From NCBI GenBank assembly GCA_001780035.1, contig MFEY01000007.1, positions 331,146 to 395,145 on the forward strand: a DNA stretch of 64,000 nt. Reading direction: 5' to 3'. The position numbers and the translations under genes were made by a program. Below the pieces are notes generated by a model that was not told the origin of the DNA, did not search any database, and saw only the letters and a list, made by a program, of their open reading frames with translations. Positions within the stretch are counted from its first letter, which is position 1. Each line of letters begins with the position of its first letter. Of the stretch, positions 10,245 through 56,330 are shown piece after piece. This DNA is from Candidatus Doudnabacteria bacterium RIFCSPHIGHO2_12_FULL_48_16 (lineage in GTDB: Bacteria > Patescibacteriota > Doudnabacteria > UBA920 > O2-02-FULL-48-8).

Positions 10245-10763
10245 ATGAACGAGATACTTAAAAAAATTATTTTAGACTTACTGCGGCAGATGGGTTTTGA
10301 GGCCGAAGTTTATGAGCGGATGGAAGAAGACCGCACGGTTTTTAATGTCAAAACTAGAGACGCTCAGCTGTTGATCGGCAAGCAGGGTGCGAATCTGCAG
10401 GCTCTGCAGCATCTGATCCGAATTTTGTTTCGCAAGCAAACCAATGATGACCCGTCTCGCCCGGCGCGAGCCGAGGCGGACCGGTTTCCGTTTGCCGTCG
10501 ATATCGATGACTACAAAGACCAGCGCAGTTTGTATCTGAAGGAGTTGGCGCGCAAGGCCGCCCACCACGTGCGCCAAACCCGTAAGCCGGTGTCACTCGA
10601 ACCTATGCCGGCGCATGAGCGCCGGGTGGTCCATTCTTATCTTTCACTTTATAATGATATCGGTTCCGAAAGTGTGGGGGTGGAACCGAATCGCAAATTG
10701 ATTATCAAGCCCAAACAAAAACCCAAGGACAAGGATGGGTTTAATTTCGTCGAAAATAGTTAA
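10245..10763 (+). CDS. jag: Jag/KhpB RNA-binding protein (KH + R3H domains)
   Basis: 172 aa; C-terminal R3H-like ERRVVHSYL; follows yidC. Confidence 0.8.
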   Translation: MNEILKKIILDLLRQMGFEAEVYERMEEDRTVFNVKTRDAQLLIGKQGANLQALQHLIRILFRKQTNDDPSRPARAEADRFPFAVDIDDYKDQRSLYLKELARKAAHHVRQTRKPVSLEPMPAHERRVVHSYLSLYNDIGSESVGVEPNRKLIIKPKQKPKDKDGFNFVENS

Positions 10764-11545
10764 GCCCGGATCTTTAGTGGTTTAGAAATTTGCCAGATCA
10801 ATTCAAATTGGCCCTTTAGCATTTCAGCCAATTCTTCACTTTCAATCAAAAACCCGAAATTTTCCCGTGAGGATGAGATAAACCTCACGGTATTTTTGTA
10901 TATGGCGTACCCCAGGGAAAAATTAATGTTTGTTTGCGCGATTCGGACTTCCCTTTTGAATTCTGGGCCGAAAGCTAAGAATTTATGAACTTTGATAGAC
11001 GGGATTTGGTTTTGTGGCCAAATCACCTTGATTTTGATGTTGTTGGCTAATCTTTTTTTGTTGAATTCTTCTATAAAGTCAGGACCCAAAGTCTCCAACA
11101 CGTTCAGTATCGGCCAATAAGCCAAGAGGGTTATGTTTTCGTAGAGCAATAAATCCTTCATCATTTGCCGAAGTTCTTCCTGAGTTTCGAATAGCTGCAC
11201 CCGGGGCTGAAACAATTTACCATTCTTAGTATGTATACTTTTTAATTCATTCAAGGCTTGGCGGGCTTCAATAAGTTTATTCTCTTTTTCTTGGATTAAG
11301 AGATTGATTTTTTCGTATGGTGAAATAGCGAATAGTTTAATTCCATTTTTGAGAGTCTCAAAGACCAGACCCAGTTTAGTCATCTGGTCTAAAGAATTAT
11401 ATACTGTCGTCCGATTGGACTTTATTTGCTTAGCCAGAGAACTGGCTTTTTGAGGGCCGGTTAGAAGCAGGACCTCAAAAATTTGTATCTGAGAAGGATC
11501 CAAAGCAAATACTGAATAGATTGATTTTAAGTTCATTGTTGTCAA
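10760..11545 (-). CDS. TrmB-like winged-helix transcriptional regulator (paralog 1 of 5)
   Basis: N-terminal wHTH (IQIFEVLLLTGPQKASSLAKQIKSNRTTVYNSLDQMTKLGLV), coiled linker, C-terminal domain ending FELIWQ; stop overlaps jag stop. Confidence 0.7.
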   Translation of the reverse strand: MTTMNLKSIYSVFALDPSQIQIFEVLLLTGPQKASSLAKQIKSNRTTVYNSLDQMTKLGLVFETLKNGIKLFAISPYEKINLLIQEKENKLIEARQALNELKSIHTKNGKLFQPRVQLFETQEELRQMMKDLLLYENITLLAYWPILNVLETLGPDFIEEFNKKRLANNIKIKVIWPQNQIPSIKVHKFLAFGPEFKREVRIAQTNINFSLGYAIYKNTVRFISSSRENFGFLIESEELAEMLKGQFELIWQISKPLKIRA

Positions 11546-11615
11546 ATTGTCTCAACAGTCTTTACAATATATTATATTATTTGCATAATGTCAAATCAAC
11601 TTGATGGAGGACAAC

Positions 11616-12263
11616 ATGAAAAAACGATTGTTGGTAGTCGATCTGGGTTACACGCAGGGCCAATCGGTTATCGGCCAATTCCCCGAGTCTACGGAATTGA
11701 AGGTCGTGTATACATTGGAAGAGGCACATGAGGAAGTTCGGCCCAAATATGGTCATACGTGGGAAGAACTGTGGGCGCAGTATAGGCCGAACCATGCAGG
11801 AGGCAATACTCAATGGTGGCATCATTTCAAAATAAGACGTGAGAAGTTACTCCAATCGCGCCTGCCATACTGGGACGCAGTGTTGACTGACTTGTGGGAG
11901 AACGACACAGATCAGATTCCCGTAGGGTTTGGAATAGCCACGATCGCTGTATTCTCCGGGGCCAAATACGTAGGGATTATGCAAAGGCGTAGTCGCAAAG
12001 ACTCCATCTTTCATTGGCTGCCAGGTTTAGGTTTTGATAACCCATCATGGTTGCAGATCGAAGAAAGAAAAGTTATCGTGTCTAACGACCAACCATATGG
12101 GAAGGGGTGGTGTGAGCAGTGGAACGATCTTTTGAGAACATCGGTGGTCTCCAATGAATTCCCCACGGATAGTTACACGAACCAGCGGGTAAAGATGGAG
12201 GAAATGGGCGGCTATGAGGCAGCTGTAAACCACTACTGGCCAGATCTCATCAAACCTAAATAA
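11616..12263 (+). CDS. hypothetical Trp-rich protein
   Basis: GGAGG SD 5 nt before ATG 11616 (M6 of tracked ORF); no family recognised. Confidence 0.55.
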   Translation: MKKRLLVVDLGYTQGQSVIGQFPESTELKVVYTLEEAHEEVRPKYGHTWEELWAQYRPNHAGGNTQWWHHFKIRREKLLQSRLPYWDAVLTDLWENDTDQIPVGFGIATIAVFSGAKYVGIMQRRSRKDSIFHWLPGLGFDNPSWLQIEERKVIVSNDQPYGKGWCEQWNDLLRTSVVSNEFPTDSYTNQRVKMEEMGGYEAAVNHYWPDLIKPK

Positions 12264-12276
12264 AGCCTAAATAAAA

Positions 12277-12305
12277 GCATGGCTCAGTCGCTGACTGAGC
12301 CATGC
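12277..12305 (+). terminator. intrinsic terminator (13-bp stem)
   Basis: GCATGGCTCAGTC-GCT-GACTGAGCCATGC followed by TAGTTTTT; 21-nt core is repeated at 13171. Confidence 0.75.
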
Positions 12306-12335
12306 TAGTTTTTATATAGCGTTGGCGATAAAGAT

Positions 12336-12428
12336 TTAATCTTGGATATAGAACAGACTGATCATGAACCAAAATAAGATCGCCAGATCGTTTTTGAAGT
12401 AAGGGACATCGACCAAGTCGTGCAGAAT
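12336..12428 (-). pseudogene. 3'-terminal remnant of an O-antigen-ligase-like gene (31 codons + stop)
   Basis: hand translation HDQLILHDLVDVPYFKNDLAILFWFMISLFYIQD* versus the C-terminus of the 14385-15587 gene ...ILHGLVDVPYFKNDLAVLFWFAISLFYLDN*. Confidence 0.8.
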
Positions 12429-12520
12429 CAGTTGGTCATGAACCCGCCCGCAAATTGGTGATCCGGCCCAAACAAAAACCCAAAGATAAAGATGGGTTTA
12501 ACTTTGTGGAAAACAGCTAG
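12425..12520 (+). pseudogene. 3'-terminal remnant of a jag gene (31 codons + stop)
   Basis: hand translation ESVGHEPARKLVIRPKQKPKDKDGFNFVENS* versus jag C-terminus ESVGVEPNRKLIIKPKQKPKDKDGFNFVENS*; all differences in the last 13 codons are synonymous. Confidence 0.8.
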
Positions 12521-12556
12521 AAATTAAATCGTCCCGATTAATCGGGACGATTTTAC

Positions 12557-12832
12557 TTAATCGCGCTTTGGCTGACCGTTTGAATATTGGTGGATCAGCG
12601 AAGCCATCAGAGTTTGATACGGAATACCTTTTTGTAGAGCCATCGCTTTTATCTTCAACAAGTCGCTTTCCGATAGGCGAATGTTAACATTTCTTGTTTT
12701 ATCTAAAGCAGCCTTCGCGTATGCTTGGTAACGCAATTTCTCAATTTTTTGATTAGAGACAGGCTTAACTTTACCCTTTTCATAGGATTTTATTATCTCT
12801 TTTTCGTAATCATCGAGTTCTAAATATTGCAT
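12557..12832 (-). CDS. brnA: BrnA-like (CopG/RHH) antitoxin
   Basis: 91 aa; downstream partner of the BrnT-like ORF; C-terminal NIRLSESDLLKIKAMALQKGIPYQTLMASLIHQY resembles BrnA RHH region. Confidence 0.65.
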   Translation of the reverse strand: MQYLELDDYEKEIIKSYEKGKVKPVSNQKIEKLRYQAYAKAALDKTRNVNIRLSESDLLKIKAMALQKGIPYQTLMASLIHQYSNGQPKRD

Positions 12833-12835
12833 AGT

Positions 12836-13111
12836 TTATTTATTAATTAAGTATTTCTTAGTCGCCTTACGGCTCGGGATAATAGTTTTTAAAAAGATTT
12901 TTTTATCATCTTCCACAAAAGGAACCAAGTAAGCGTAATGATTGATTTCAACCACAAAGATTTTTTGGTTGAGGTATTTTTTTGAGTTCGGGTGTTCTAG
13001 GATGTCGAGTAACCGACCCTCATTTAAGGCTATAATGATATACTCAAATCCTATACCGCGGCTATCTATTAGCTGAATATTTTTATCAACACTCCAGTCA
13101 AAATACTTCAT
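12836..13111 (-). CDS. brnT: BrnT-like (DUF497) ribonuclease toxin
   Basis: 91 aa; FDWSVDKN start and C-terminal IIPSRKATKKY resemble the BrnT family; 3-nt gap to antitoxin gene. Confidence 0.65.
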   Translation of the reverse strand: MKYFDWSVDKNIQLIDSRGIGFEYIIIALNEGRLLDILEHPNSKKYLNQKIFVVEINHYAYLVPFVEDDKKIFLKTIIPSRKATKKYLINK

Positions 13112-13170
13112 AAATATAGTTTATGACAAAGCATACTATTTGTCAATATATAGGTTCAAATAAAAAGGAA

Positions 13171-13193
13171 CGGCTCAGTCGCTGACTGAGCCG
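13171..13193 (-). terminator. terminator hairpin sharing a 21-nt core with 12281-12301
   Basis: CGGCTCAGTC-GCT-GACTGAGCCG; on minus strand followed by TTCCTTTTTA; just downstream of the 13207 stop. Confidence 0.65.
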
Positions 13194-13206
13194 TGCCGCC
13201 GACTTT

Positions 13207-13500
13207 TTAAGTTGGCGGCATTCGGAACGAATCCAAGAGCGCGGCAAGAAGCTTCGATTTACCCAATTTCTTGATAGGCCCACTTGCTGTAAAGCGTGTT
13301 CCTGTCCAACGCACTATTTTGTGTGCGATCCGGCCGATTACGATGCCCATTGGCAGAGATATCGCGAAGGACACGTACCACGCATGTAGCCATCTCGCAA
13401 CAAAATCGTCAACGAAACCCAAGTTCCGCCAGGTCGCCACGCCGGTCACGAGTAGGCTCATGAACAGCATCCGGAGCACTTGCTCTGCGTACCAGACCAT
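13207..13500 (-). CDS. small membrane protein, DUF2798-like
   Basis: strong SD AAGGAGGA before ATG 13500 (M22 of tracked ORF); two-TM pattern resembling DUF2798. Confidence 0.5.
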   Translation of the reverse strand: MVWYAEQVLRMLFMSLLVTGVATWRNLGFVDDFVARWLHAWYVSFAISLPMGIVIGRIAHKIVRWTGTRFTASGPIKKLGKSKLLAALLDSFRMPPT

Positions 13501-13629
13501 TATTCCTCCTTTGTGTTGCCAGAGTGCAACGATATAGATTATCAGTTCTAGGAATATATACAATAATTTGGGCAGTTATTTCGAGATATTGACAAAAAGC
13601 CAATAAATAAGGCATTATATAGGCAATTA

Positions 13630-14388
13630 ATGCCGCCAGTTTTTATGGCAGAATCCCAATTAGAGCGCATTCTTATCGAATATGGGCTTAGACAAAAACA
13701 AGCCAAGGTTTACTTGGCGTGTTTGGAAGTGGGTTCAGGCACCGTGCTGAAGATCGCCCAAGCCGCTGGCATGCCCCGTTCCACTACGGAACTGGAACTG
13801 AACCACTTGTTGGACAGCGGTCTGGTCTCCATGTATAAAAAGAAAAGCGTGAAGTATTTTAGTGCCGATGACCCTCATTCGCTTTTGAATTTACTGGAAG
13901 AAAAATCCGAACTAATCCAAAGAGCGCTGCCAAAATTTGTTTCTTTATATGGCAGCAATAAAACCAGGCCCTCAGTGCGATTTTACGAAGGCCGTCAGGG
14001 GTTGAAGCTAGTCTTAGGTGAAATACTTGTGGAAGCCAAGGAATTAATTTCACTTGGTTCAGCAGAGGATTTATTTAAAGTTTTGGAAGACTTTCCGGAA
14101 TTCGTAATGAAAAGAGTGGAACGTAAAATTCCTGTTAAAGTTATTCTTATAGATTCTCCGAAGGCCAGAGAGAGAAAGCTTCTGGGACCACAACAGCTTC
14201 GGCAGGTAAGACTGATACCGGAAACTTACAGTTATCACGGTCAATACAATGTTTGGAACAACAAGATCGCGATGTTTTCCTTTGGCCGTAATTTGTCAGC
14301 TGTGGTAATAGAAAGCCTAGAACTGGCGCAAATGCAAAAGGCTGCCTTTAATTTTATGTGGGACAGCCTGGAGGTCAAGAGAAATTAA
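13630..14388 (+). CDS. TrmB-like winged-helix transcriptional regulator (paralog 2)
   Basis: KQAKVYLACLEVGSGTVLKIAQAAGMPRSTTELELNHLLDSGLV wHTH; C-terminal AFNFMWD; stop overlaps ligase stop by 4 nt. Confidence 0.7.
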   Translation: MPPVFMAESQLERILIEYGLRQKQAKVYLACLEVGSGTVLKIAQAAGMPRSTTELELNHLLDSGLVSMYKKKSVKYFSADDPHSLLNLLEEKSELIQRALPKFVSLYGSNKTRPSVRFYEGRQGLKLVLGEILVEAKELISLGSAEDLFKVLEDFPEFVMKRVERKIPVKVILIDSPKARERKLLGPQQLRQVRLIPETYSYHGQYNVWNNKIAMFSFGRNLSAVVIESLELAQMQKAAFNFMWDSLEVKRN

Positions 14389-15587: not shown

Positions 15588-15590
15588 TTA

Positions 15591-19946: not shown

Positions 19947-20411
19947 TTATCGTCCGATTCCAGACCAGGCGATCGCGCACGCATCTGCGGCATCATCGGG
20001 TTTGGGAATTTTTTTCAGTTTCAAAAGTTTGACGATCATGGTCTGCACTTGTTTTTTGTCCGCCTTGCCATAGCCGGTCGTGGACATTTTGACTTGCAAC
20101 GGCGTGACTTCAATCATTTTGAGTCCGGCTTCAGCCAAAGTTACCATGACCATGCCCCGCGCCTGCCCGACGGTCATCGCGGTTTTGACATTGGTTTCGA
20201 AAAACAACGATTCGATGCAGGCGCTGTCCGGTTTTAATTTTTTGATTAAGGTGGTTAAATCTTTTTTGATTTCCAAAAGCCGGGCCGGCTCGGCCGTCCC
20301 CGCCTTGGTCGTGATACAGCCGCATTCCAGCAAAGAAGTTTCCTTGCCAGTATGTTTGAGGAATGCATAGCCGGTGCGCGCTATCCCTGGATCAATTCCT
20401 AGTATGATCAT
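19947..20411 (-). CDS. ruvC: crossover junction endodeoxyribonuclease RuvC
   Basis: 154 aa; MIILGIDPGIARTGYA start typical of RuvC. Confidence 0.92.
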   Translation of the reverse strand: MIILGIDPGIARTGYAFLKHTGKETSLLECGCITTKAGTAEPARLLEIKKDLTTLIKKLKPDSACIESLFFETNVKTAMTVGQARGMVMVTLAEAGLKMIEVTPLQVKMSTTGYGKADKKQVQTMIVKLLKLKKIPKPDDAADACAIAWSGIGR

Positions 20412-21124
20412 AAATTTACGTTACTATGAACCGCCACGACATCATCGTCTTCATTCAGCGCATCGAGTAGAGTTTGAATTTTGATAGCATCATCCAGAGC
20501 GACTTCCACTGATTGCTGCGGGCGCATAATAAGCTCGCTCGAAAGCGTTTTTATCCCCTTGGCCTCGATAAACTTTTTGGTTTTTTCCAGGTCCATCGGC
20601 AGAGTGTAAATTTCCAATCCTTCTGGCGTTTCTTTCACGTCTTCGACTCCTTGGTCAATCAATTCCAGAGGTAAATCCTCGGCGCCCTTCTGCTTCTCCA
20701 CCAGGATCTGGCCTTTGGACTCAAACATCCAAGCGACGCTGCCCTGCTCCCCCAGGCGGCCGTTATTTTTCGTAAAGATGTTGCGAACGCTTTGGAGTGT
20801 GCGATTGGTGTTATCAGTCACGGTTTCTACAATCAGGGCCGAGCCGGCGGGTCCATATCCTTCATAGGTAGCTTGCTGGATGCTTTCTTTGCCTTCGCCT
20901 TTGCCGCGCGCAATCGCGCGTTCCACATTTTCCTTGGGCATGCCGACTTCCTTGGCTTTATCCATGGCCATACGCAACTGAAAATTAAACGTCGGGTCAG
21001 CCCCGCCTCCGGTGCGCACCGCCACCGTGATGTTTTTGGCAATTTTAGTAAAAGCCTTGCCCTTGCGAGCATCCGTGATTGTCTTGGCCCGTTTGATTGT
21101 ATTCCATTTACTGTGTCCACTCAT
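20408..21124 (-). CDS. yebC: YebC/PmpR family DNA-binding regulator
   Basis: 238 aa; MSGHSKWNTIKRAK start is diagnostic of the family. Confidence 0.92.
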   Translation of the reverse strand: MSGHSKWNTIKRAKTITDARKGKAFTKIAKNITVAVRTGGGADPTFNFQLRMAMDKAKEVGMPKENVERAIARGKGEGKESIQQATYEGYGPAGSALIVETVTDNTNRTLQSVRNIFTKNNGRLGEQGSVAWMFESKGQILVEKQKGAEDLPLELIDQGVEDVKETPEGLEIYTLPMDLEKTKKFIEAKGIKTLSSELIMRPQQSVEVALDDAIKIQTLLDALNEDDDVVAVHSNVNL

Positions 21125-21129: not shown

Positions 21130-21876
21130 TTATTTTATAATCTTATCATACGGCTCCGCTTGTTTCCAAGCAAACTCAAATAATGTCCGAAGCGACTGAT
21201 GAATGGTTTTGCTTTGAATTAATACAGCAAAAATATGCGGTTGATAGGAAAAAAACACCACGTTGCCATCGAATAAGCAATTATCTGTGAGAAATTCTTC
21301 TCCGGGTTTGGTAAATCGTTGTTGGTAATATTCAGTATGAGTTACATTTTCCGCGAATTTGAGGTCCGCGGGATTTTGAGTCAAAATCTCCAAGACTTTA
21401 GTTTTTTTGGCCAGTGTGTTGGCAACTAACTTTTTTTCATAATCCGGATAGATGGTGACAAAATCTCGGATAGTGCCGAAAAAAATAACCTCTTTGGCAT
21501 TTAAAATTTTATCATATAAATCTTTTATCGCTTCTTTGCCTTCAAACAATAAAACCTGTGGTTTATTTTTTGGTTCATTATAGACGGCCAGTAGGTTAGG
21601 CATGAACCTTTTGACTAGCTCTTGTTTGCGATTCAGATCCGAGAGGATTTTGTCCGGCGACTCTGGCATGTATAAAATCTTCTTCGCTCGCGGTACTAGA
21701 GCGGCCAATCCCTTCTTCTGTAGCTCGTCGAGGATCAGATAAGTCGTGGGGCGCTTAGTCCCCGCTTTCTTGGCGATCCCTTCAACTGAAGAGGTACCCA
21801 ATTCCAATAAAGCCATATAGACCATGGCTTCTTTTTGGTTTAATCCGATTTTCTCCAGTATTTCTGCGATTTCCAT
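21130..21876 (-). CDS. TrmB-like winged-helix transcriptional regulator (paralog 3)
   Basis: QKEAMVYMALLELGTSSVEGIAKKAGTKRPTTYLILDELQKKGL wHTH; C-terminal LFEFAWKQ; divergent from ABC operon. Confidence 0.72.
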   Translation of the reverse strand: MEIAEILEKIGLNQKEAMVYMALLELGTSSVEGIAKKAGTKRPTTYLILDELQKKGLAALVPRAKKILYMPESPDKILSDLNRKQELVKRFMPNLLAVYNEPKNKPQVLLFEGKEAIKDLYDKILNAKEVIFFGTIRDFVTIYPDYEKKLVANTLAKKTKVLEILTQNPADLKFAENVTHTEYYQQRFTKPGEEFLTDNCLFDGNVVFFSYQPHIFAVLIQSKTIHQSLRTLFEFAWKQAEPYDKIIK

Positions 21877-21899
21877 TTGGTTCTCTTCAGATTAGATCT

Positions 21900-21936
21900 C
21901 CCCTCTCCTGACTAGGAGAGGGGCCGGGGGTGAGGT
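21900..21936 (-). repeat. REP-like element (CCCCTCTCC hairpin + GGTGAGGT tail), copy A
   Basis: its reverse complement matches 56380-56416 at 33 of 37 positions by hand alignment. Confidence 0.7.
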
Positions 21937-21970
21937 TAGCCCAGTCAACTTATCAGCATTTTGCTCTTTT

Positions 21971-22059
21971 GTCAATAATTCTGACAACATAACAACTAAA
22001 GATAAAAAAAGCTTTATATAAGCTATTATTTGACTATTATATAAGTCAGAATTATTGAC
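21971..22059. promoter_or_regulatory. candidate operator: perfect 15-bp inverted repeat pair
   Basis: GTCAATAATTCTGAC (21971-85) and GTCAGAATTATTGAC (22045-59), 59 nt apart, in the divergent TrmB-like/ABC intergenic region. Confidence 0.5.
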
Positions 22060-22113
22060 CTAAGGATTAATAAATGGTATTATTACCCGTTAAAACAGTA
22101 TTAATCATTATTT

Positions 22114-23097
22114 ATGAAAAAACTATATGCGGGGTTTGGGGTTGTGGTATTGCTTGTTGTTTTAATCATGGGATTGAAAGGTTTAAACCATTCTCAGGAC
22201 AGTAAGTCAGCCACTCTAAAGATCGGACTTAATCCGTGGATCGGCAATGGGCTGTATTTTATCGCTCAGGAAAAAGGATTCTTCGAGGCAAATAATATCA
22301 ACGTTAAGCTCGAGAGCTTTGACGATGGCGCAATCGGCAAGCAATTGTTAAATAGTGGGAAAGTGGATGTGCTTCCTATTACGCCTGAAACCGTAGTGAT
22401 AATTAAAGATTCGGGTCTGGGCATTAAAATTATTGGAATGACGGTTGCCAGTAAAGGCGCTGATGGCATAATTGCGACTAGAGATGTTCAGAATCTTACC
22501 GATCTTCGCGGTAAAAAAGTTGCATTCGAAGTTGGCTCCCCTTCTCATTTCCTGCTGTCTTATTTTTTAGATCAGCAGAATTTAGATACCAGTATTTTGG
22601 ATGTGGTTAATACCACAGCCCCTGATGCCGGAGCTGCTTTCGTGGCGGGTCAGGTGGACGCCGCTGTAACTTGGGAGCCGTGGCTGTCCAAAGCAAGCGA
22701 ACGACCAGGTGGGCATGTCTTGCTGAGTTCTAAAACCATGGAATTATTTCCTGACATGATGATTATCAGGAACGATGTACTCGAAAGCAACCCAGAAGCA
22801 GCCGCGGCTCTATTGCGCTCTTTGTTTGCTGCGATTGATTGGATAAATGCCAACAATGACGAAGCGGCTGAAATTATCGGGAAAAATTTTCAAATCTCCC
22901 CGGAAGAAGTTAAGGCACAGCTTGCGACCATCCAGTGGTTAACTTATGACGATAACATTGTCAGCTTCAAATCTGGCCAGCCTCAGGACTTGCTGCAAAA
23001 AGCCGGGGATCTCTGGCTTAGACTGGATTTGATCCGGAATCCTATTAGTGGCACTAATTTGGTTGATGACTCTATATTAATTAATCTCTATAAATGA
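22114..23097 (+). CDS. ABC transporter substrate-binding protein (NitT/TauT, NMT1-like)
   Basis: 327 aa with signal/anchor; resembles sulfonate/nitrate/taurine-type binding proteins; operon with permease and ATPase. Confidence 0.75.
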   Translation: MKKLYAGFGVVVLLVVLIMGLKGLNHSQDSKSATLKIGLNPWIGNGLYFIAQEKGFFEANNINVKLESFDDGAIGKQLLNSGKVDVLPITPETVVIIKDSGLGIKIIGMTVASKGADGIIATRDVQNLTDLRGKKVAFEVGSPSHFLLSYFLDQQNLDTSILDVVNTTAPDAGAAFVAGQVDAAVTWEPWLSKASERPGGHVLLSSKTMELFPDMMIIRNDVLESNPEAAAALLRSLFAAIDWINANNDEAAEIIGKNFQISPEEVKAQLATIQWLTYDDNIVSFKSGQPQDLLQKAGDLWLRLDLIRNPISGTNLVDDSILINLYK

Positions 23098-23876
23098 AAT
23101 TAGAAAGGAAAATCAGCAGGAATAAATATATACTCTTCGGATCCGCAGGATTGCTGGTTTTCCTTTCTGTTTGGTCGTTACTGACGTATACAGGATTAGT
23201 GCCAGCGTTCTTTCTACCGCCACCGAGCAAGGTATTATCGGCTATTGCAGATTTGCTAATCAAAGGGAATTTGTTGGGCGATATCTTCGCCAGCTCTTCC
23301 AGGATTTTTTTTGGTTTCCTTTTGTCTCTAGTGGTAGCTTTGCCTATTGGAATTGCCCTCGGTATATCACGGAAGTTTGAGGCGTTCATAGAACCCATTA
23401 TCGCCTTTATTCGATATATTCCGCCCTCTGCATTTATACCATTAGCAATCATTTGGTTTGGGATTGGGGAGCTTGAAAAAGTCACGATATTGTTTATGGG
23501 GATAGCGCCTTACTTGACATTATTGATCGCTGACGTTGTCATAAACAGCCGTAGGGATTTGGTTGAGGCTGCCTTAACTCTCGGAGCTGATCATCAAAGC
23601 GTGATCCTTAAAGTCATACTGCCAAACTGTTTTCCTGGGATTTGGGACTCGTTACGGATCATGATGGGGGCAGCTTGGACTTTTGTGATTATCGCAGAAA
23701 TTGTCGGAGCAAGTGCCGGCTTGGGACATTTGATGATTGAATCGCAGAGATTTTTAAGAACTGACAATATTTTTGGCGGGATTGTTGTGATTGGGTTTTT
23801 GGGACTGACTACGGATTATTTTTTTAAAGTAACTTACAAGTCGTTATTTAAGTGGACCGAGAAATCCAATGCTTGA
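23094..23876 (+). CDS. ABC transporter permease (NitT/TauT family)
   Basis: 260 aa, about 6 TM, BPD_transp_1-like; 4-nt overlaps with both neighbours. Confidence 0.8.
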   Translation: MKLERKISRNKYILFGSAGLLVFLSVWSLLTYTGLVPAFFLPPPSKVLSAIADLLIKGNLLGDIFASSSRIFFGFLLSLVVALPIGIALGISRKFEAFIEPIIAFIRYIPPSAFIPLAIIWFGIGELEKVTILFMGIAPYLTLLIADVVINSRRDLVEAALTLGADHQSVILKVILPNCFPGIWDSLRIMMGAAWTFVIIAEIVGASAGLGHLMIESQRFLRTDNIFGGIVVIGFLGLTTDYFFKVTYKSLFKWTEKSNA

Positions 23877-24615
23877 AATATCAAATATTTCTAAATTATA
23901 TAAACATAACGACCAGTGGTCGGAAGTTATCAAAGATGTCACCTTGCCGATTGCAGACCGGGAGTTCATTGCGATTGTAGGACCGAGCGGTTGCGGTAAA
24001 ACAACACTACTCAAGATTCTTGCGGGGTTGCTGGAACCTTCAAGCGGCAAAATTTTACTGGACGGCAAAGAGATCACCGCACCGGGAAAGGACTTGGGGT
24101 TGGTGTTCCAGGGCTTCACGCTTTTCCCCTGGTTGAACGTCTGGGAAAACATTGCCTTCGGATTAAATATAAGAAACTTGAAGCAAGAAGAAGTGGTAAA
24201 GACCGTGAATCATTATTTAACCGTAACTGGCCTAAAAGACTTTGCTGAATATTTTCCCAAGGATTTGTCCGGAGGCATGCAGCAAAGGGTTGCCATTGCG
24301 CGTACTTTGGCCAATAATCCCAAGATATTGTTGATGGATGAGCCGTTTGGCGCTCTCGACTCCCAGACCCGTTCGCAGATGCAGGAGTTCTTGACCCGTC
24401 TATGGGAAGCAGAACATAAAACAGTTGTTTTTGTTACTCACGATGTAAATGAAGCGGTTTTTTTGGCTGATAAGGTCTATGTTTTTAGCCCCCAACCCAC
24501 TGAGATAAAAAAAGTTTTTAACGTGCCTTTCCCCCGCCCACGTACTCACGCGCTTAAACGTACTAAGGAATTTTTTGACTTCAGTAATCAAGTCGCACAC
24601 GAGTTCGAGCAATAG
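23869..24615 (+). CDS. ABC transporter ATP-binding protein (NitT/TauT family)
   Basis: Walker A GPSGCGKTT, signature LSGGMQQR, Walker B LLMDEPF. Confidence 0.9.
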   Translation: MLEISNISKLYKHNDQWSEVIKDVTLPIADREFIAIVGPSGCGKTTLLKILAGLLEPSSGKILLDGKEITAPGKDLGLVFQGFTLFPWLNVWENIAFGLNIRNLKQEEVVKTVNHYLTVTGLKDFAEYFPKDLSGGMQQRVAIARTLANNPKILLMDEPFGALDSQTRSQMQEFLTRLWEAEHKTVVFVTHDVNEAVFLADKVYVFSPQPTEIKKVFNVPFPRPRTHALKRTKEFFDFSNQVAHEFEQ

Positions 24616-24688
24616 AAATTAATTTGTTGAACAGAGTTAAATTAAGGTATAAATAATACAAGTATTAATACACCGAAAGGAAGATTAT

Positions 24689-25420
24689 ATGGGCAGAGGA
24701 GATACTACTAACAGGCCATCCGATCCAAGCAATCCAGAGGCGCAATCAAGTTCGCTGGAAATCTTACAAAGGAGAATGGCACAATTACAAGAACAGACAG
24801 CTTCTGCGCAGAGAGAGAAAGAGGCAGCCGTAGGCAGAAAACAGGCAGATTTGGCTAGGACTCTAACTGCACACCAAGGTGCCCAATTGGAAAAGCAAAG
24901 AGTGGCTGCTGGGATAGAACAGACTAAAGCAGAATTAATACAGTTTGAGGCGGTAAAGCAACAAGCCAAAGCCGCAGGGATTGCAGTAGAGGACGACGAA
25001 GGATTTACGGCTGCTTTTCAGGCAGAAAAGAATAGGTTGGCAGAATTAGAACAAAGTCAAAGGGAATTAACAATAAGGATCAATGTTCTGGCAAGTGATC
25101 CTGAAGCTGTGGCAGGAATAAAGACTGAAATCGAGGCAAATAACAAGAAAGAATTGGAAGAAACAGAAACAGATATGCGCATGGCTTTACTTGAATTCGC
25201 ACTTAATTTACGGAATAGATTTATTGATTCTGATCATAGACCAGGCGACGTAGCAGAAGAAATGAGGCAAGCACTCGAATCCTCTGAAACACTCGACTCC
25301 CTTACTGCTCAGGGTGAAGTTTTTAGGCAGCATGAATATAATATCGGGCAAGATCGAGTTGCAATAAGATATCTTGAACTTAAGGCAAAAGCACAAAGTC
25401 TTAGGGAATCAGGGAAGTAA
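24689..25420 (+). CDS. hypothetical coiled-coil protein
   Basis: 243 aa, Gln/Glu/Ala-rich heptad-like sequence, no signal peptide; promoter/5' region paralogous to the next gene. Confidence 0.55.
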   Translation: MGRGDTTNRPSDPSNPEAQSSSLEILQRRMAQLQEQTASAQREKEAAVGRKQADLARTLTAHQGAQLEKQRVAAGIEQTKAELIQFEAVKQQAKAAGIAVEDDEGFTAAFQAEKNRLAELEQSQRELTIRINVLASDPEAVAGIKTEIEANNKKELEETETDMRMALLEFALNLRNRFIDSDHRPGDVAEEMRQALESSETLDSLTAQGEVFRQHEYNIGQDRVAIRYLELKAKAQSLRESGK

Positions 25421-25440
25421 AAGAATTTACCGGTTAAAGA

Positions 25441-25467
25441 AAACTGCCTCGAATTGAGGCGGTTTTG
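25441..25467 (+). terminator. intrinsic terminator
   Basis: CTGCCTC-GAATT-GAGGCGG followed by TTTT. Confidence 0.65.
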
Positions 25468-25658
25468 AAATTTATTTATACAAATTGCTGTGCGTGTGGG
25501 TTAAAATTAACTCCCCCGCAACCCCTCCCTGTCGGGTTAGAATAGACAGGAGTTTTTTCCAGCAGATTTAATAAGTTAGTCTGTTGAAAAGAATTAAATT
25601 AGGTATATAATAAGGTTAGAAAAAGTAACTAGCTTTGTTGTAAAAAGAAAGGAAAAAT

Positions 25659-26312
25659 ATGGGGACAGAAACTGAAGATGATGAGCAGGCAAAAGCAAAT
25701 TTTAAATTTCCTGAAAATCGTGTAGAAGATCCTAGCCCAGTAGCCGTTGAATCCAGAGACAGTCAAGCCGAAAAAGCAGAAGCAAAAATAGAGCAGAGTC
25801 TGACCGAGTGCCTGAATTTGGCACAAAACGATACTGACAGAGAAGATGTAAAGTATCTTTTCAGACAATTTTTAACAGGGTCTAGTTCGGTAGATAAGAC
25901 AGAAAGGTTACGAGGACTAACCCCTGACAACATACAGATTCTGGAAGCGAGAATAAACCGGGTTAGTGAATACGCAAAACTTCACATGGCGGTTTCGCAT
26001 ACAGGTGAAGCTTGGCAAGAAGCGAAAGGTAAATTTACTGAAGATTCAAAAGAATATCAAGCCGCACAAAAAGCTTATAAAGATACCCTTGAATCATACA
26101 ATGTTGCCAGAGCAATGGTCGCCGCTTCCGATGTTGAAGTTATTAAATACAATGATCCGAATCTTGAAGACGACGAAAACTTGCGAAGAACAGCATTTGA
26201 ACTTGATACCGCCACAAAGTATACGGATTCAGTGGATAGCCTGCCTTATTCCCAGCAGGAAATTAGGGCTATCCGGGCCAGAAGTGAAGCCAAGAATAAA
26301 TTAAGTTCTTAA
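25659..26312 (+). CDS. hypothetical acidic helical protein
   Basis: 217 aa, acidic; starts MG like its upstream neighbour; no family recognised. Confidence 0.55.
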   Translation: MGTETEDDEQAKANFKFPENRVEDPSPVAVESRDSQAEKAEAKIEQSLTECLNLAQNDTDREDVKYLFRQFLTGSSSVDKTERLRGLTPDNIQILEARINRVSEYAKLHMAVSHTGEAWQEAKGKFTEDSKEYQAAQKAYKDTLESYNVARAMVAASDVEVIKYNDPNLEDDENLRRTAFELDTATKYTDSVDSLPYSQQEIRAIRARSEAKNKLSS

Positions 26313-26330
26313 ATCTAAATCGAGATAACT

Positions 26331-26358
26331 AAAACCCGCCAGGCTTGGGCGGGTTTTT
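26331..26358. terminator. bidirectional intrinsic terminator
   Basis: AAAACCCGCC-AGGCTTG-GGCGGGTTTTTT between convergent genes. Confidence 0.8.
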
Positions 26359-26362
26359 TATT

Positions 26363-33992: not shown

Positions 33993-34511
33993 ATGAACTC
34001 GGCGGATGAGCGGTTGTTAGTGGTTAAAGCACAAGGAGGCGACCGCGAAGCCATAGGGCAGCTTTGGGATCTTTTGACCCCCAAGCTTTACGGATATTTG
34101 TTAAACACCCTACGCCACCGTCCCCTCGCTGAAGATATTTTACAGTCGACCTGGCTAAAAGCGATCGAGGCACTCCCCAAATTTCAGCAGAAACATATCC
34201 GTGTCGGCTCTTGGCTGTTTGCGATTGCCCGGAATGAATGCCGGCAACATTGGCGTAAATCAAACCGAGAGGTTGGGTTGAATGCGTCCCTAAACGAATT
34301 GCCAAGCAATACCTATATCGATTCAGAGAATCAAATTTTAGTTGAACAAATGCTGGCCCCTTTATCTGAAGATGATCGGGAATTGATTCGTCTTCGATAC
34401 ATTGCCGATTTGCCCTTGAATGAAATAGCCAAAATTTTGAATCTTAATTTTGTGGCCGTCCGAGTCCGCCTCCACCGAGCTCTCACTCGGGCCAAAAGTA
34501 GCCTTAACTAA
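33993..34511 (+). CDS. ECF-type RNA polymerase sigma-70 family factor
   Basis: 172 aa; region 2 (DILQSTWLKAIE) and region 4 (LPLNEIAKILNLNFVAVRVRLHRA). Confidence 0.88.
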   Translation: MNSADERLLVVKAQGGDREAIGQLWDLLTPKLYGYLLNTLRHRPLAEDILQSTWLKAIEALPKFQQKHIRVGSWLFAIARNECRQHWRKSNREVGLNASLNELPSNTYIDSENQILVEQMLAPLSEDDRELIRLRYIADLPLNEIAKILNLNFVAVRVRLHRALTRAKSSLN

Positions 34512-42442: not shown

Positions 42443-43192
42443 TTAATTCACTCTTTTCCCTATTTTACCAACTTCCCAGGTAATCTCAAAGAAATTATTT
42501 AAAGTCTGAAACAAATCTTCGGATTCGATAATGATGCCGAAGTTTTCTTTTTTCGTGCCAATGATCGAAACCTTGCGATCATACAAATAAATGGTCATGG
42601 GGAAAATCATTTTTTGCGGCGCGTAGCGCAACTCGCGGAACTCTTTTTGGCTGCTCGGCCAGGTTTCTTCCACCTCTTTGATCTCGGAGCGGATGACCCG
42701 CAGCTTGATCTGGGCCGCAATCCGCTTGGCAACGTATTCGTCCATAAATTGTTTCCCGGGGGTTTTGTATAAGTCCTCCATGGATAGAATGCCGCGTAGC
42801 GTTTTGTTGTTCACGGTCAGAGTGTCTTTGAAAACTTCTTTCATACCCTCGACGCCCTCATAAAATTTAATCCGGGGCCGAAAACCGGCCGAATTAAACA
42901 ACAACTTTAGTTCGGGCAACGCCTCGTCGAGCTTGTGTTCCTGCTCTTTAAGCAACAATTTGAGCTGGATGGGGGGTTCGGCCTCGAAGATCAAGGTCCG
43001 GCCGCGTTGGATTTTCCGGATCAATCCCCGATGGGCCAAGTGTTCCAAGATTTCATTGGCCGTGGTGCGCGGAACCCCGGCTTTATCCGCAATGGTCCGA
43101 ACTTTGGCGCGGCCCAATTCCAAGGCCGCCAGATAAACCTCGGCTTTGGTTTTATGGATTCCTAATTCCCCCAGAACCAGTTTAATATCCAT
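42443..43192 (-). CDS. TrmB-like winged-helix transcriptional regulator (paralog 4)
   Basis: KTKAEVYLAALELGRAKVRTIADKAGVPRTTANEILEHLAHRGL wHTH; C-terminal FFEITWEV. Confidence 0.72.
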   Translation of the reverse strand: MDIKLVLGELGIHKTKAEVYLAALELGRAKVRTIADKAGVPRTTANEILEHLAHRGLIRKIQRGRTLIFEAEPPIQLKLLLKEQEHKLDEALPELKLLFNSAGFRPRIKFYEGVEGMKEVFKDTLTVNNKTLRGILSMEDLYKTPGKQFMDEYVAKRIAAQIKLRVIRSEIKEVEETWPSSQKEFRELRYAPQKMIFPMTIYLYDRKVSIIGTKKENFGIIIESEDLFQTLNNFFEITWEVGKIGKRVN

Positions 43193-43356
43193 TTTGTCGG
43201 AAAATTACGACGACAATAATTAGTTAATTTTGGCTTAGCAAAAGCAAAATTTAAATCTAGATCAATGTGTATATACAACTATTATAGACCAAATATCCAA
43301 ATTCGTCTAAGCTTACCGGTCAACCTTAATTTCGGGTTGATCAGCAGGAGGAAACA

Positions 43357-51136: not shown

Positions 51137-51142
51137 GTTCTC

Positions 51143-51169
51143 AAAAAGTCGCCTCGTCAGCGACTTTTT
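51143..51169 (+). terminator. intrinsic terminator
   Basis: AAAAAGTCGC-CTCGTCA-GCGACTTTTT. Confidence 0.75.
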
Positions 51170-51197
51170 GATATGATTAAGCTAGAGAATTAAAGAA

Positions 51198-52178: not shown

Positions 52179-52191
52179 GCTATTTGGCATA

Positions 52192-52767
52192 TTGACATAT
52201 ACTACCATATTAGCTATGATGATAGTAATTTGTCGTATATATACATATATAAACGTGAAGACTGTAAAAAATCGATTAACCAAACAGCAGCAAGAAGGGC
52301 TCTTGATCAAGCTGGCGCGGGCCGTGGCTTCAGTTAATCGTGCCGAGGAAGGCGCCAAATTCCTTAGGGATTTATTGTCTGAGCCCGAGGTATTTATGTT
52401 AGCTCGTCGGCTGCAAATTGCTGAATTGTTGATGGACGGTTTAACTTATGAACAGATTCGAGAAGAATTAAACGTAGGCTATAATACCATTGCTAAGGTT
52501 CAAACTTGGCTGGAGCTTTATGGCGACGGATATAGGACGGTGATTAACCGGACAATTAAGAATAAAGTAGAAAAAAATATTAATGAACCATTTACAAAGT
52601 TGAAGCGAAAATACCCGATATCGTTTTGGCCGCAGTTGTTGCTCGAAGAGATGATTAGAAACGCCAATCAACGGGAGAAACAAAGATTACGGAATGTGGT
52701 GGAAGGGTTACGGAACAAAACGCAACTCTCGCGTGAGCTAACAAAATTATTAGCTAAAATAAATTAA
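52192..52767 (+). CDS. TrpR-related YerC/YecD family protein
   Basis: RLQIAELLMDGLTYEQIREELNVGYNTIAKV motif; real start may be the GTG near 52255. Confidence 0.65.
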   Translation: MTYTTILAMMIVICRIYTYINVKTVKNRLTKQQQEGLLIKLARAVASVNRAEEGAKFLRDLLSEPEVFMLARRLQIAELLMDGLTYEQIREELNVGYNTIAKVQTWLELYGDGYRTVINRTIKNKVEKNINEPFTKLKRKYPISFWPQLLLEEMIRNANQREKQRLRNVVEGLRNKTQLSRELTKLLAKIN

Positions 52768-53885: not shown

Positions 53886-53912
53886 TATTTAGATACTTAA
53901 TGAGTAATCACT

Positions 53913-54386
53913 ATGGCTAAAGAAAAACTTATCAACAAACTTATGGGTTCTCAAACCACCACGGAGGATAGTGACGACGAAATTGCAACCCCGGAAGAAA
54001 CCGAAACCGCAGCTGCCGCTCCGGCCTCTCAGGAAGATTGGCTGTCGGAATACGAAGGCCAATTAACGATTGATATGTATCAGACCAAGGACAACGTGAT
54101 TATCAAATCGACCATTGCCGGCGTGCGGCCGGAAGACATCGACGTCACGATCGCTAATGACATGGTGACGATCCGCGGCGAACGCAAGCGCGATTTTGAA
54201 GCCTCAAGTGAAGATTATTTTTATCAGGAATGTTACTGGGGTTCATTCTCCCGTTCCGTGGTTCTGCCGGTCGATGTCGACATCGAACAGGTCAACGCCG
54301 ATTTGAAGGATGGCATCCTGACCGTGATTCTGCCGAAAGCCGCCAAAGCCAAGGCCAAAAAAGTCAAAGTCGGCGCCAGAGTGTAA
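53913..54386 (+). CDS. Hsp20/alpha-crystallin small heat shock protein
   Basis: 157 aa; alpha-crystallin domain ending GILTVILPKA. Confidence 0.85.
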   Translation: MAKEKLINKLMGSQTTTEDSDDEIATPEETETAAAAPASQEDWLSEYEGQLTIDMYQTKDNVIIKSTIAGVRPEDIDVTIANDMVTIRGERKRDFEASSEDYFYQECYWGSFSRSVVLPVDVDIEQVNADLKDGILTVILPKAAKAKAKKVKVGARV

Positions 54387-54523
54387 GGCAGGTATCAGAT
54401 AATACTAAACAGATAACAAAGAGAAGAAGCAGGCCTGTTGCAGGTCTGCTTCTTTAGTTACGTAATTGCCACGCCACGGCCGGCGCAAATTTGAGCGGCC
54501 CGATGAGCCGGCGGGCCGGAAGG

Positions 54524-54808
54524 TCATTGCGACTTGCTTTGATAGAAGTTATCCACTATTTCGGCGGCGCCAAAAAGATCACCAATTAGAGATCTCACCT
54601 TATAGTCGTTAAGTTGTTGTCCTTCGAGGTCCATCTTCCGTAGAATCAATTGAACGTAGTCCAGCAGTTTTTCTCTTGCTTCGGGGCTGAGATTCCTAAT
54701 TGCCCAGCTCGGAATATCCTCGTCCGTAAGTGTAATTATTCTTTTCAATTGAACCTCCAAAAAAGATAGGGCAAGCCTTGCGACTCGCCCTGGTCCCCAT
54801 TCAATCAC
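54524..54808 (-). CDS. hypothetical protein (94 aa), downstream member of a two-gene unit
   Basis: 4-nt start/stop overlap with the upstream gene; no family recognised. Confidence 0.4.
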   Translation of the reverse strand: MIEWGPGRVARLALSFLEVQLKRIITLTDEDIPSWAIRNLSPEAREKLLDYVQLILRKMDLEGQQLNDYKVRSLIGDLFGAAEIVDNFYQSKSQ

Positions 54809-55398
54809 TTGCCGGGCTTATACACGACATAGGTCCGGACCACGACGTTGCCATGGATATTCTTGAAGGCCGTCGTGGCAATGTTCGTGCCCTTAAGCTT
54901 GGGAACTTTGACGCTGGCGCGCAGGCCGACCCCTGTAGTGGTTTTGGCCGGCTTGCCGTGAGCCTTGTCCTCAAACACCACGACCTGCTCGTATTCAACT
55001 CCGACGCGCCAGCCCAGGGTGTCCGAGGTTACTGGGACCGTCACGAACCCGCTCATCAGCGCTAGATTGCTCCGTAGCTGAAACTCGGTGTAGAGATCGG
55101 TGCGCCGGCTTTTGGCGTAAGACCGGAAGTTGGCCACGGGTTTGACCACACCGTCAGTGCCGATCACGGAGCCGAACATGACTTCTTTCCAGCCCCGGTC
55201 GTCGCGGGTAAGGTACCCCGCGACCAAAAGCAGTTGCCGCGGCGTGCGCGTGGCGTCAGGCACAATGACCCAGCCGGCCAAGTGGCCCGCCTGCCAGTGG
55301 AGCAGGGGTCGGAACTGATAATCATTCGGCGGCGTCTGCGCGGTAACAAGAGAGGGGAGAACGAGCACGGCACATGCGGCCAGAATCAGGTGCTTCAT
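54805..55398 (-). CDS. hypothetical secreted beta-rich protein
   Basis: SD GGAGG 5 nt before ATG 55398 (M8 of tracked ORF); signal peptide MKHLILAACAVLVLPSLVTAQ; alternating beta-strand-like pattern. Confidence 0.5.
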   Translation of the reverse strand: MKHLILAACAVLVLPSLVTAQTPPNDYQFRPLLHWQAGHLAGWVIVPDATRTPRQLLLVAGYLTRDDRGWKEVMFGSVIGTDGVVKPVANFRSYAKSRRTDLYTEFQLRSNLALMSGFVTVPVTSDTLGWRVGVEYEQVVVFEDKAHGKPAKTTTGVGLRASVKVPKLKGTNIATTAFKNIHGNVVVRTYVVYKPGK

Positions 55399-55508
55399 GG
55401 TTTCCTCCATGGAAATCATTAGGGCCGCAATTGGCCGCTAGTTAACAGGTCTTGCCTGTTAACGTCAAAGCATATATTATATAGTTGGAGTGGCCAATAC
55501 CACCACGA

Positions 55509-55524
55509 GGTGATAATTATCACC
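55509..55524. promoter_or_regulatory. perfect 16-bp palindrome just upstream of TrmB-like paralog 5 (candidate auto-operator)
   Basis: GGTGATAATTATCACC, 8 nt before ATG 55533. Confidence 0.4.
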
Positions 55525-55532
55525 ACAAAAAT

Positions 55533-56330
55533 ATGTATCAAGAAACTCTACAATCCTTGGGATTAAGCCCAAATGAGGCGAAAATTTATGAAACCCTGGT
55601 CGGGACTGGGGAGACGACTATTGGGGACATTGCCGTGGCCGCCAAAGTTCACCGGCGGAATGTTTATGATTCCGTTCAACGCTTGATTGAAAAAGGCCTG
55701 TGTTTTGAGGTTTTTTCGAGCGGCGGGAATTTATATAGCGCAGTCGATCCAGGTAAACTTTCCGAATTGGTGGCGGAAAAACAACAAAAATTAGAATTGA
55801 TTTTACCAGAATTGCAAAAGAAATTTCGGAAAGGAACTGAGAAGGAAGAAGCTTACATTTATAGAGGCTTTGAAGGTCAGAAAAATGTTTGGCGTGATAT
55901 ATTGCGAGTTGGTAAAGACAGTTATTTTATTGGAGCCAAAGGAGGTTGGTTTGATCCGCGGATTGATAAAACTGCCCGTGATGTTTTTTTCCGCGAAGCT
56001 AATCGAAAAAAAATAAAATTTACTCAACTATTTGATTATGAAGTTAAGGAGCAAATGCCGGACTTTCCGCGTTATTTTCCAGGAGACTTAAAATATCGCT
56101 TTCTCCCAAAAAAATATTCCACTACTTCCGGGGTTGGGATATTTGGGGATTATGTGATTACTTACACCGGGTTAGGGGTTATTGGCCGAATGGAGGAGAA
56201 TACTGTATTTTTTATTTTACACAGCAAAGATTTGGCAGAATCCTACCGGACTTGGTTTTGGTATATGTGGGAGCAGTCGGAGGAAGATAAAAAGCCACGT
56301 AGCGCGAATCACGAAACACGTAACAAATAA
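55533..56330 (+). CDS. TrmB-like winged-helix transcriptional regulator (paralog 5)
   Basis: start at MYQETLQSLGLSPNEAKIYETL (M17 of tracked ORF); wHTH; C-terminal WFWYMWEQ. Confidence 0.7.
   Translation: MYQETLQSLGLSPNEAKIYETLVGTGETTIGDIAVAAKVHRRNVYDSVQRLIEKGLCFEVFSSGGNLYSAVDPGKLSELVAEKQQKLELILPELQKKFRKGTEKEEAYIYRGFEGQKNVWRDILRVGKDSYFIGAKGGWFDPRIDKTARDVFFREANRKKIKFTQLFDYEVKEQMPDFPRYFPGDLKYRFLPKKYSTTSGVGIFGDYVITYTGLGVIGRMEENTVFFILHSKDLAESYRTWFWYMWEQSEEDKKPRSANHETRNK

Follow-up and report, generated by a model that had tools for sequence, protein, structure and literature searches.

Why should a single stretch of 64 kb in a bacterial genome contain five genes for TrmB-like regulators? The stretch in question, hereafter the window, comprises 64,000 nucleotides of Candidatus Doudnabacteria bacterium RIFCSPHIGHO2_12_FULL_48_16 (contig MFEY01000007.1, positions 331,146 to 395,145), and the five genes, named W1 to W5 in order of position, lie at 10760–11545 (− strand), 13630–14388 (+), 21130–21876 (−), 42443–43192 (−), and 55533–56330 (+). 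A preliminary description of the window considered this density to be far above expectation, saw accessory or unknown cargo beside each gene, and proposed that the regulators travel with, or police, horizontally acquired modules. We consider another answer to be the probable one, namely that W1–W5 are ancient TrmBL2-like paralogs, from a family that expanded across Patescibacteria, and that they are mostly negative autoregulators acting through orthogroup-specific operators. At least W3, W4, and W5 would be sequence-specific DNA binders, every one of them having a recognition helix and a palindromic operator of its own and most likely repressing the promoter of its own gene. A conserved candidate operator, overlapping the core promoter of the gene itself or following it closely, is found for W3 (a palindrome termed O1), for W5 (a tandem element), and for W4 (8/8 genes of its type). 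The presence of five genes in 64 kb would then reflect the high copy number of the family in this lineage plus one island, with no general link to foreign DNA.

Five Paralogs with the Architecture of TrmBL2

The five open reading frames (ORFs) all exceed the gathering score of 25.6 bits for the TrmB family PF01978 (range 31.3–52.6 bits), as the preliminary description had anticipated. A hidden Markov model built from the five and run against the 458 window ORFs of at least 40 aa matches exactly W1–W5, the next match having E = 1e-4. Aligned end to end (alignment A1), they share 21–29% pairwise identity and ten invariant columns, among them F247 and W251 (W1 numbering), the two aromatic residues of the F-x-x-x-W motif. 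Their common architecture, a winged helix-turn-helix (wHTH), a long helix, and a C-terminal domain of ~130 aa that ends in F-x3-W, is the one that had been outlined earlier, the "coiled linker" of that outline being a predicted 25-residue helix and its C-terminal part a compact α/β domain.

The proteins differ in their starts and in the helix expected to read the DNA. W1 has 261 aa from a mechanically chosen TTG start, a PF01978 score of 31.3 bits, and the recognition helix NRTTVYNSLDQM; gene callers start it at the ATG at 11536 (258 aa), which is the probable start. W2 (252 aa, 36 bits, recognition helix PRSTTELELNHL) is divergent from a gene for a DUF2798 membrane protein, and W3 (248 aa, 50.8 bits, KRPTTYLILDEL) heads a W3-yebC-ruvC string. 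W4 has 249 aa, 52.6 bits, and PRTTANEILEHL; W5 has 265 aa, also in public gene calls, 51.8 bits, and HRRNVYDSVQRL. An alternative, longer W5 from a TTG at 55485 would cross its conserved operator. No further paralog was found in the ~8 kb beyond each edge of the window, so the count is five per ~80 kb. Proteins identical to those of the window are encoded on contigs of a Candidatus Doudnabacteria metagenome-assembled genome (GCA_001777855.1) and on a 231-kb scaffold.

The profile of A1 matches the archaeal TrmB structure 3qph over the wHTH and linker (E = 3e-10) and matches TrmBL2 (5bpd, 5box) over nearly its full length, with 5bpd aligned over positions 5–243 of 250. AlphaFold models of W3 and W5 (predicted local distance difference test of 90 and 87.8) display in order the wHTH, a helix of ~25 residues, and an α/β domain, and their top Foldseek match is TrmBL2 (E = 5e-15 and 3e-13, ~265 aligned columns). 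TrmB 3qph comes next, and then the phospholipase D (PLD) nucleases NucT, Nuc, and Zucchini. These nucleases share the C-terminal fold (E = 7e-7 to 1e-4, template modeling score ~0.6, target-normalized) and the conserved Ser that caps the last helix, but their catalytic HxK(x4)D residues are replaced in W1–W5. At −16, −14, and −9 from the Ser one finds V/I/G, F/M/I, and R/P/K/E, and the H/K/D set is missing at the corresponding motif positions. Because the HxK(x4)D positions carry other residues, the C-terminal domain can be regarded as a noncatalytic scaffold, as in TrmB. Going by the models, it is a PLD fold without the HKD residues and without the sugar-binding half of TrmB.

The Pfam model of the TrmB C-terminal domain, PF11495, had also been suggested as a test. 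With a cut-off of 22.2 bits, it recognizes none of the five: W4 reaches 16.1 bits, W2 reaches 12.1 bits, and W1, W3, and W5 give no match. The two subthreshold matches span positions 33–134 of the 233 in the profile, i.e., its first half only. Hence W1–W5 do not possess the full TrmB effector domain. Neither do they fit the equivalog models of NCBIfam: TrmB and TrmBL1 score 17–38 bits against cut-offs of 600–650, and the TrmBL2 model NF041141 (cut-off 530) scores 24.3 bits with W3 and does not match the other four. TrmB and TrmBL1 have 338–341 aa and the sugar-binding residues G320/E326, and TrmBL2 has 264 aa and lacks the sugar-binding part (PMC4158304). Since W1–W5 are 248–265 aa long, their architecture is that of TrmBL2. 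They are members of the TrmB superfamily without being orthologs of any named archaeal member, and the proteins themselves are ordinary members of a known superfamily of regulators.

Among these relatives, TrmBL2 of Thermococcales (PF0496/TK0471; PDB 5bpd, 5box, 5bqt) is the closest. It has the same wHTH, long helix, and single PLD-like C-terminal domain, a similar length (264 versus 248–265 aa), and the same lack of the ~70-aa sugar-binding part, and it is the best full-length match in both fold and sequence. The recognition-helix pair Tyr50-Asp51 of TrmBL2, which TrmB shares, located through alignment to 3qph and A1, is retained by W5 (Y-D) and reads Y-N in W1, Y-L in W3, E-L in W2, and N-E in W4. 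The differences are nonetheless large. Identity to W1–W5 is only 16–22%, and the window proteins are bacterial, not archaeal. TrmBL2 is one abundant protein, whereas here there are multiple divergent paralogs per genome, and as a chromatin protein it reportedly binds throughout the DNA, within genes as well as between them, in contrast with the conserved candidate operators found here at own promoters.

A longer architecture, absent from the window, exists in the family. Among the top 149 family representatives, 35 have 370–1079 aa, with one wHTH and coiled coil followed by 2–7 tandem PLD-like domains (e.g., P0358, P0359, P0362, P0369, P0378, and P0388).

The truncated C-terminal domain bears on a first alternative, namely that the five proteins are classical TrmB-type sensors of a ligand, regulating adjacent ABC transporters, with an effector at the C-terminal domain relieving repression as sugar does for TrmB. 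What speaks for it is that the domain is homologous to one part of the effector domain of TrmB, its first subdomain. The sugar-binding subdomain and G320/E326 (PMC4158304) are however absent, PF11495 fails, and the proteins have ~250 instead of ~340 aa. We regard this explanation as very improbable, the transporters near some of the genes being considered below.

Three Ancient Orthogroups and Two Rare Copies

The family as a whole is large, with 11,244 clusters at 50% identity (E ≤ 1e-10), and the five paralogs occupy very different places in it. W5 has 1739 database matches at E ≤ 1e-10, of which the best 120, at 64–91% identity, span Doudna-, Taylor-, Yanofsky-, Zambryski-, and Brennerbacteria; it is the most conserved orthogroup of the five. 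Among the matches listed, W3 has 117 orthologs (51–100% identity) and W4 has 116 (45–84%), the latter including Uhr-, Magasanik-, and Kerfeldbacteria. By this measure of sequence conservation, W3, W4, and W5 are ancient orthogroups, with 45–92% identity across distant lineages of Patescibacteria. W1 has four relatives, its own cluster included (51–100% identity). W2 is recorded only in this species, in the same context, and has no close relatives among the matches listed. W1 and W2 are rare, fast-evolving copies, and both lie in a species-specific island.

The Candidate Operators of W3 and a Divergent Transporter

Upstream of W3 lies the palindrome O1 (TGTCA-N7-TGACA, 21970–21986), a candidate operator that overlaps the −35 box (TTGACA) of the W3 promoter. 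It is present upstream of 34 of the 36 W3 orthologs, usually 46 nt before the ATG and over the TTGACA box. Related loci (designated L plus a number) amounting to 1.22 Mb contain 71 exact copies, every one of them at the start of a TrmB-like gene, and the window has a single one. A second site, O2 (AGTCAGAATTATTGACC, 22044–22060), has a GTCA-N7-TGAC core, lies 74 bp from O1, and may be an auxiliary operator. When one mismatch at most is allowed, 36 of 70 O1 sites have an O2 located 72–76 bp upstream, the background being 0.005 per offset. W3 would bind O1 over its own −35 box and O2 as an auxiliary site, and since the 74 bp between them make seven helical turns, a dimer of dimers holding a DNA loop between O1 and O2 is suggested. 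The long helix of W1–W5 would serve for dimerization.

Divergent from W3 is an ABC transporter (22114–24615, +) with an NMT1-type substrate-binding protein, a permease, and an ATPase (Pfam NMT1_2, BPD_transp_1, and ABC_tran). Its promoter is predicted at 22055–22083 (TTGACC-17-TATTAT in the promoter scan), and the TTGACC half of O2 is the −35 box of that promoter. Because of this coincidence W3 probably corepresses the transporter through O2 in this genome, which makes the transporter a probable local target of W3. O2 is not a transporter-specific operator, as the 74-bp spacing recurs where there is no transporter, for example in L003 and L004, close relatives from which the transporter is missing.

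This arrangement favors the ligand-sensing explanation. A divergent NMT1/THI5-type transporter recurs beside a TrmB-like gene in L009, L010, L042, L046, L153, and L171, and its partners in the window and in these six loci belong to three TrmB subfamilies according to lineage (W3-like, W5-like, and W1-like). There is also the overlap of O2 with the predicted −35 of the transporter. Yet the majority of W3, W4, and W5 orthologs have no transporter beside them, and O1 and O2 are present with or without one. The resemblance to TrmB/TrmBL1 (Tgr) of Thermococcales and to VNG1451C of Halobacterium (PDB 3qph) includes the PF01978 wHTH, the coiled-coil linker, the palindromic promoter operators, and genes that sometimes stand beside the ABC transporter that they control. 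These proteins have the complete PF11495 effector domain, whereas the window proteins end after its first subdomain, and the adjacent transporter in the window is of the NMT1/THI5-like kind and does not belong to the sugar transporters. The ligand-sensing explanation may be partly true for W3 in this genome, and it is then compatible with autoregulation by W3 except for the identity of the ligand.

On its other side W3 is followed, 5 bp past its stop codon, by yebC (20408–21124, −) and then by ruvC (19947–20411, −), both identified with Pfam and both on the strand of W3. The order W3-yebC-ruvC is kept in L003, L004, L044, and L053. W3-type genes of other genomes are upstream of infB or face an NMT1-type transporter.

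The 5′ leader of W3 also contains a GC-rich palindrome resembling repetitive extragenic palindromes (REP), AACCTCACCC(n2-3)CCCTCTCC-loop-GGAGAGGG, which is not in Rfam. Its window copies are at 21901–21922 (W3 leader) and 56394–56415 (infB leader), and it is dispersed in many copies in L005, L011, L013, L025, L031, L143, and others. Several relatives carry it as an insertion that separates the W3-type operator/promoter from the ATG and so extends the leader from 46 nt to ~100–210 nt. The hairpin of the W3 and infB leaders was considered as a part of the regulatory system and ruled out, as it is dispersed across many intergenic regions of related genomes.

The Candidate Tandem Operator of W5 and the Divergent Gene p204

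The candidate operator of W5 (55487–55530; GAGTGGCCAATACCACC-ACGA-GGTGATAATTATCACCAC) consists of two GTG-N8-CAC palindromes whose centers are 20 bp apart. The promoter scan places it between the −10 box (55475–55480) and the ATG. Its 44-nt pattern, GAGTGGCCAAyAnCACC-N4-GGTG-N8-CACCAC, aligns without gaps in 60 distinct sequences. At least 53 of 80 W5 loci have it where the gene begins, and there is one occurrence in 1.22 Mb of control loci and one in the window. W5 would bind both tandem sites, which lie two helical turns apart between the −10 and the start codon.

An RNA element was considered as well. The two candidate hairpins of the W5 leader were searched for covariation, and none was found beyond that of shuffled alignments, of which 59/500 and 397/500 score no lower than the real one; most of the variable positions are unpaired. 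An Rfam scan of the window returned tRNAs only. We have therefore rejected an RNA element and read the two palindromes as candidate DNA operators.

A second, perfect palindrome (GTTAACAGG-N5-CCTGTTAAC, 55441–55463) lies over the −35 box of the W5 promoter, and many W5 loci repeat the motif TAACAG..CTGTTA around a TTGAC −35 box. Another regulator may bind at this palindrome.

Divergent from W5 is p204 (54805–55419, −), which encodes a predicted secreted protein with a signal peptide starting from MKHLIL at 55398 and for which Pfam, NCBIfam, and PDB give no match. With a GC content of 0.60, it is unusually GC-rich by the standard of this genome. The preliminary description had taken it for secreted cargo, but a divergent homolog is present within 500 nt in 35 of 54 W5 loci, and in none of the W3 loci, so that p204 is a conserved partner across Patescibacteria. 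W5 probably also controls it. In the other direction, infB was considered as a conserved target of W5 and rejected, since its place downstream of a W5-type gene is limited to close relatives within Doudnabacteria. In other Doudnabacteria it is a W3-type gene that is upstream of infB. According to the promoter scan, infB carries a promoter-like site of its own.

Leader Elements of W4 and W1 and the Question of Specificity

W4 is preceded by a 23-bp element, TTGTCGTCGTAATTTTCCGACAA (TTGTCG-N11-CGACAA; 43194–43216, −), which ends 1 nt before the ATG and which W4 would bind. A related element, TGTyGTCr-N7-8-..CGWCAA, stands directly before the ATG in 8 of 8 W4-type genes, and the genomic contexts of these genes differ freely from one locus to the next. 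Just before the ATG of W1 there is a candidate, CTGTTGAGACAA..GACAAC, and the pattern CTGTyG...GACAAC is common to W1, L171, and L009 (n = 3), which is suggestive only of a conserved site.

These elements are the place to consider a second alternative, in which the five would be nucleoid-associated proteins that, like TrmBL2, coat DNA with little sequence preference, repress globally, and profit from gene dosage near the origin. TrmBL2 represses globally and is a protein of chromatin (PMC4158304), and it is the best full-length match of the window proteins in structure and sequence, with the same length and the same missing sugar-binding part; furthermore, multiple copies are beside oriC. However, each orthogroup has a distinct, conserved palindrome at a fixed position in its own promoter, which is the signature of sequence-specific factors. 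The recognition helices in A1 differ strongly between paralogs, as would be consistent with distinct operators, and the score with the NCBIfam TrmBL2 equivalog is 24 bits against a cut-off of 530. We thus see little probability in a chromatin role as the general explanation.

Several points weigh against sequence-specific autoregulation, and they should be set beside the evidence in its favor. TrmBL2 binds DNA nonspecifically, and by analogy some paralogs, especially W1 and W2, may have a chromatin-like role. The assignment of each operator to the adjacent gene is by co-occurrence only. The sample of W3 loci is biased, because they were retrieved through a pattern of the W3 recognition helix, and about half of the O1 sites have a degenerate O2 or none. 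The elements of W4 and W1 come from 8 and 3 sequences only. The predicted template modeling scores of the AlphaFold models (0.55–0.57) make the relative placement of the domains uncertain. Finally, a range of ~10 kb contained no copies of the operators at other genes, and the window contained none of the W3 and W5 operators beyond the self sites, so that no regulon beyond the gene itself and its divergent neighbor shows up in these sequences.

Variable Segments, Composition, and Density

A third alternative is the one of the preliminary description. The proteins would be accessory regulators carried along with horizontally acquired modules or silencing them, in the manner of xenogeneic silencers or of local regulators borne on islands. 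One case for it is the low-GC island at 10764–14384, 3.6 kb between jag and a Wzy_C gene, which contains W1, p220, a toxin–antitoxin-like pair, the DUF2798 gene, and W2. Its GC content is 0.417, against 0.508 for backbone genes, and the closest relative, L003, has only ~750 bp in its place. The pair consists of two adjacent 91-aa ORFs that resemble a type II toxin–antitoxin system, with Pfam matches below threshold to a CopG antitoxin (12557–12832, −; 26.8 bits) and to a BrnT toxin (12836–13111, −; 19.2 bits). The DUF2798 membrane protein gene (Pfam; 13207–13563) is divergent from W2, and p220 has no match in Pfam or NCBIfam.

The island is one of three window segments missing from the closest relatives, L003 and L004, with which the backbone is collinear at ~75% protein identity. 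The second (21877–26362) contains the ABC transporter that W3 abuts and two ORFs of unknown function. To these facts one may add that W1 and W2 are nearly without relatives, that W2 and W3 are at the 97th and 94th percentiles of local GC contrast, the only two of the five on boundaries, and that the closest solved homolog, TrmBL2, is the global repressor and chromatin protein already mentioned (PMC4158304).

The remaining evidence goes against the explanation. W3–W5 have their 45–92% identity across distant lineages and their conserved candidate self-operators; where relatives lack the ABC cassette, W3 still retains its synteny with yebC-ruvC; W5 has in p204 a conserved partner and not cargo; and W4 and W5 are without GC contrast. 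Enrichment at compositional boundaries had been set beforehand as the test that could refute the proposal, and 90 family members in related loci have none (mean percentile 0.499, P = 0.96), nor are they enriched beside AT-rich flanks (P = 0.53). The tested loci indicate that W3- and W5-type genes are no more frequent in variable regions than others. The neighbors of the paralogs are mostly housekeeping or core genes, encoding Jag, PBP1A, TyrRS, YebC, RuvC, GyrA, ribosomal protein S1, a Mur ligase, IF-2 (infB), RbfA, a DHH phosphoesterase, and FtsK. Three of the paralogs do border variable DNA of lower GC, namely W1 and W2 in the island and W3 at the ABC cassette. A preference of the family for variable or atypical DNA holds for W1, W2, and one flank of W3 and does not hold overall. 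Travel with acquired modules, or their policing, could apply at most to these same cases and is not supported for W4, for W5, or as a general inference, given that W3–W5 are old orthogroups with conserved candidate operators at their own promoters. As an explanation of all five genes it is improbable, if somewhat less so than the two discussed above.

Composition deserves a separate remark. The GC content is 0.379 in W1, 0.435 in W2, 0.398 in W3, 0.479 in W4, and 0.409 in W5, compared with 0.508 ± 0.040 in backbone genes, and the 90 relatives are on average 2.9 GC points below their own loci. It is the genes themselves that are low in GC, and among them are W3 and W5, which were inherited vertically.

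The window was chosen because of its cluster of paralogs, and the background for its density was taken from the flanks of related loci. Extra TrmB-like genes occur once per ~40 kb in the flanks of W3 loci and once per ~75 kb in those of W5 loci. A second paralog is within 12.7 kb in 4 of 7 W4 loci, and one Wolfebacteria locus has six TrmB-like genes in 20 kb. Under the flank rates, the Poisson probability of four extra copies in 63 kb is ~0.05–0.1. Five genes in 64 kb are therefore only modestly above the background of the lineage; the density is unusual for bacteria in general, as had been remarked, but it is largely a trait of the lineage.

Other Features of the Window

The window is the replication-origin region, with recF-dnaN-dnaA (−) and rpmH-rnpA-yidD-yidC-jag (+) at 4818–10763. 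The minimum of the cumulative GC skew is at ~5–7 kb, and the gene order there is the classical one of origin regions. The third segment missing from L003 and L004 (32007–35670) contains an HNH endonuclease between tRNA-Cys (32213) and tRNA-Leu (32908), a 207-aa ORF without assignment, an ECF sigma factor (33993–34511), and a DUF4349 protein, and was likely inserted at a tRNA site. A RhuM/Fic-domain gene (62810–63799) lies in a low-GC stretch (0.37–0.44) where the window ends on the right.

Implications for Regulation in Patescibacteria

Gene regulation in Patescibacteria, or the candidate phyla radiation (CPR), has hardly been charted, and a literature search with TrmB and CPR/Patescibacteria names found no paper linking the two in the library covered. 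The orthogroups described here are conserved across distant lineages (Doudna-, Taylor-, Yanofsky-, Magasanik-, and Uhrbacteria), and they come with candidate sites that can be tested: TGTCA-N7-TGACA with its partner 74 bp away, the tandem GTG-N8-CAC, and TTGTCG-N9-11-CGWCAA. Two gene pairs, W5-p204 and W3 with the NMT1-type transporter, can be tested as well. The results also call for caution, because low GC near such genes in these genomes should not be read as a sign of horizontal transfer.

A bolder view, which we find doubtful but worth stating, is that TrmBL2-like proteins make up the dominant repertoire of transcription factors throughout the phylum, as ancient orthogroups with fixed operator "addresses" that repress through dimer-of-dimer loops or as roadblocks, and that the near-universal W5 type controls p204 as a conserved, secreted surface protein. 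If this were true, the pairing of W5 and p204 could belong to the control of the cell surface and of host contact in episymbionts, and the operators would provide, for the first time, a regulatory code that can be used in a third of bacterial diversity that has almost escaped cultivation.

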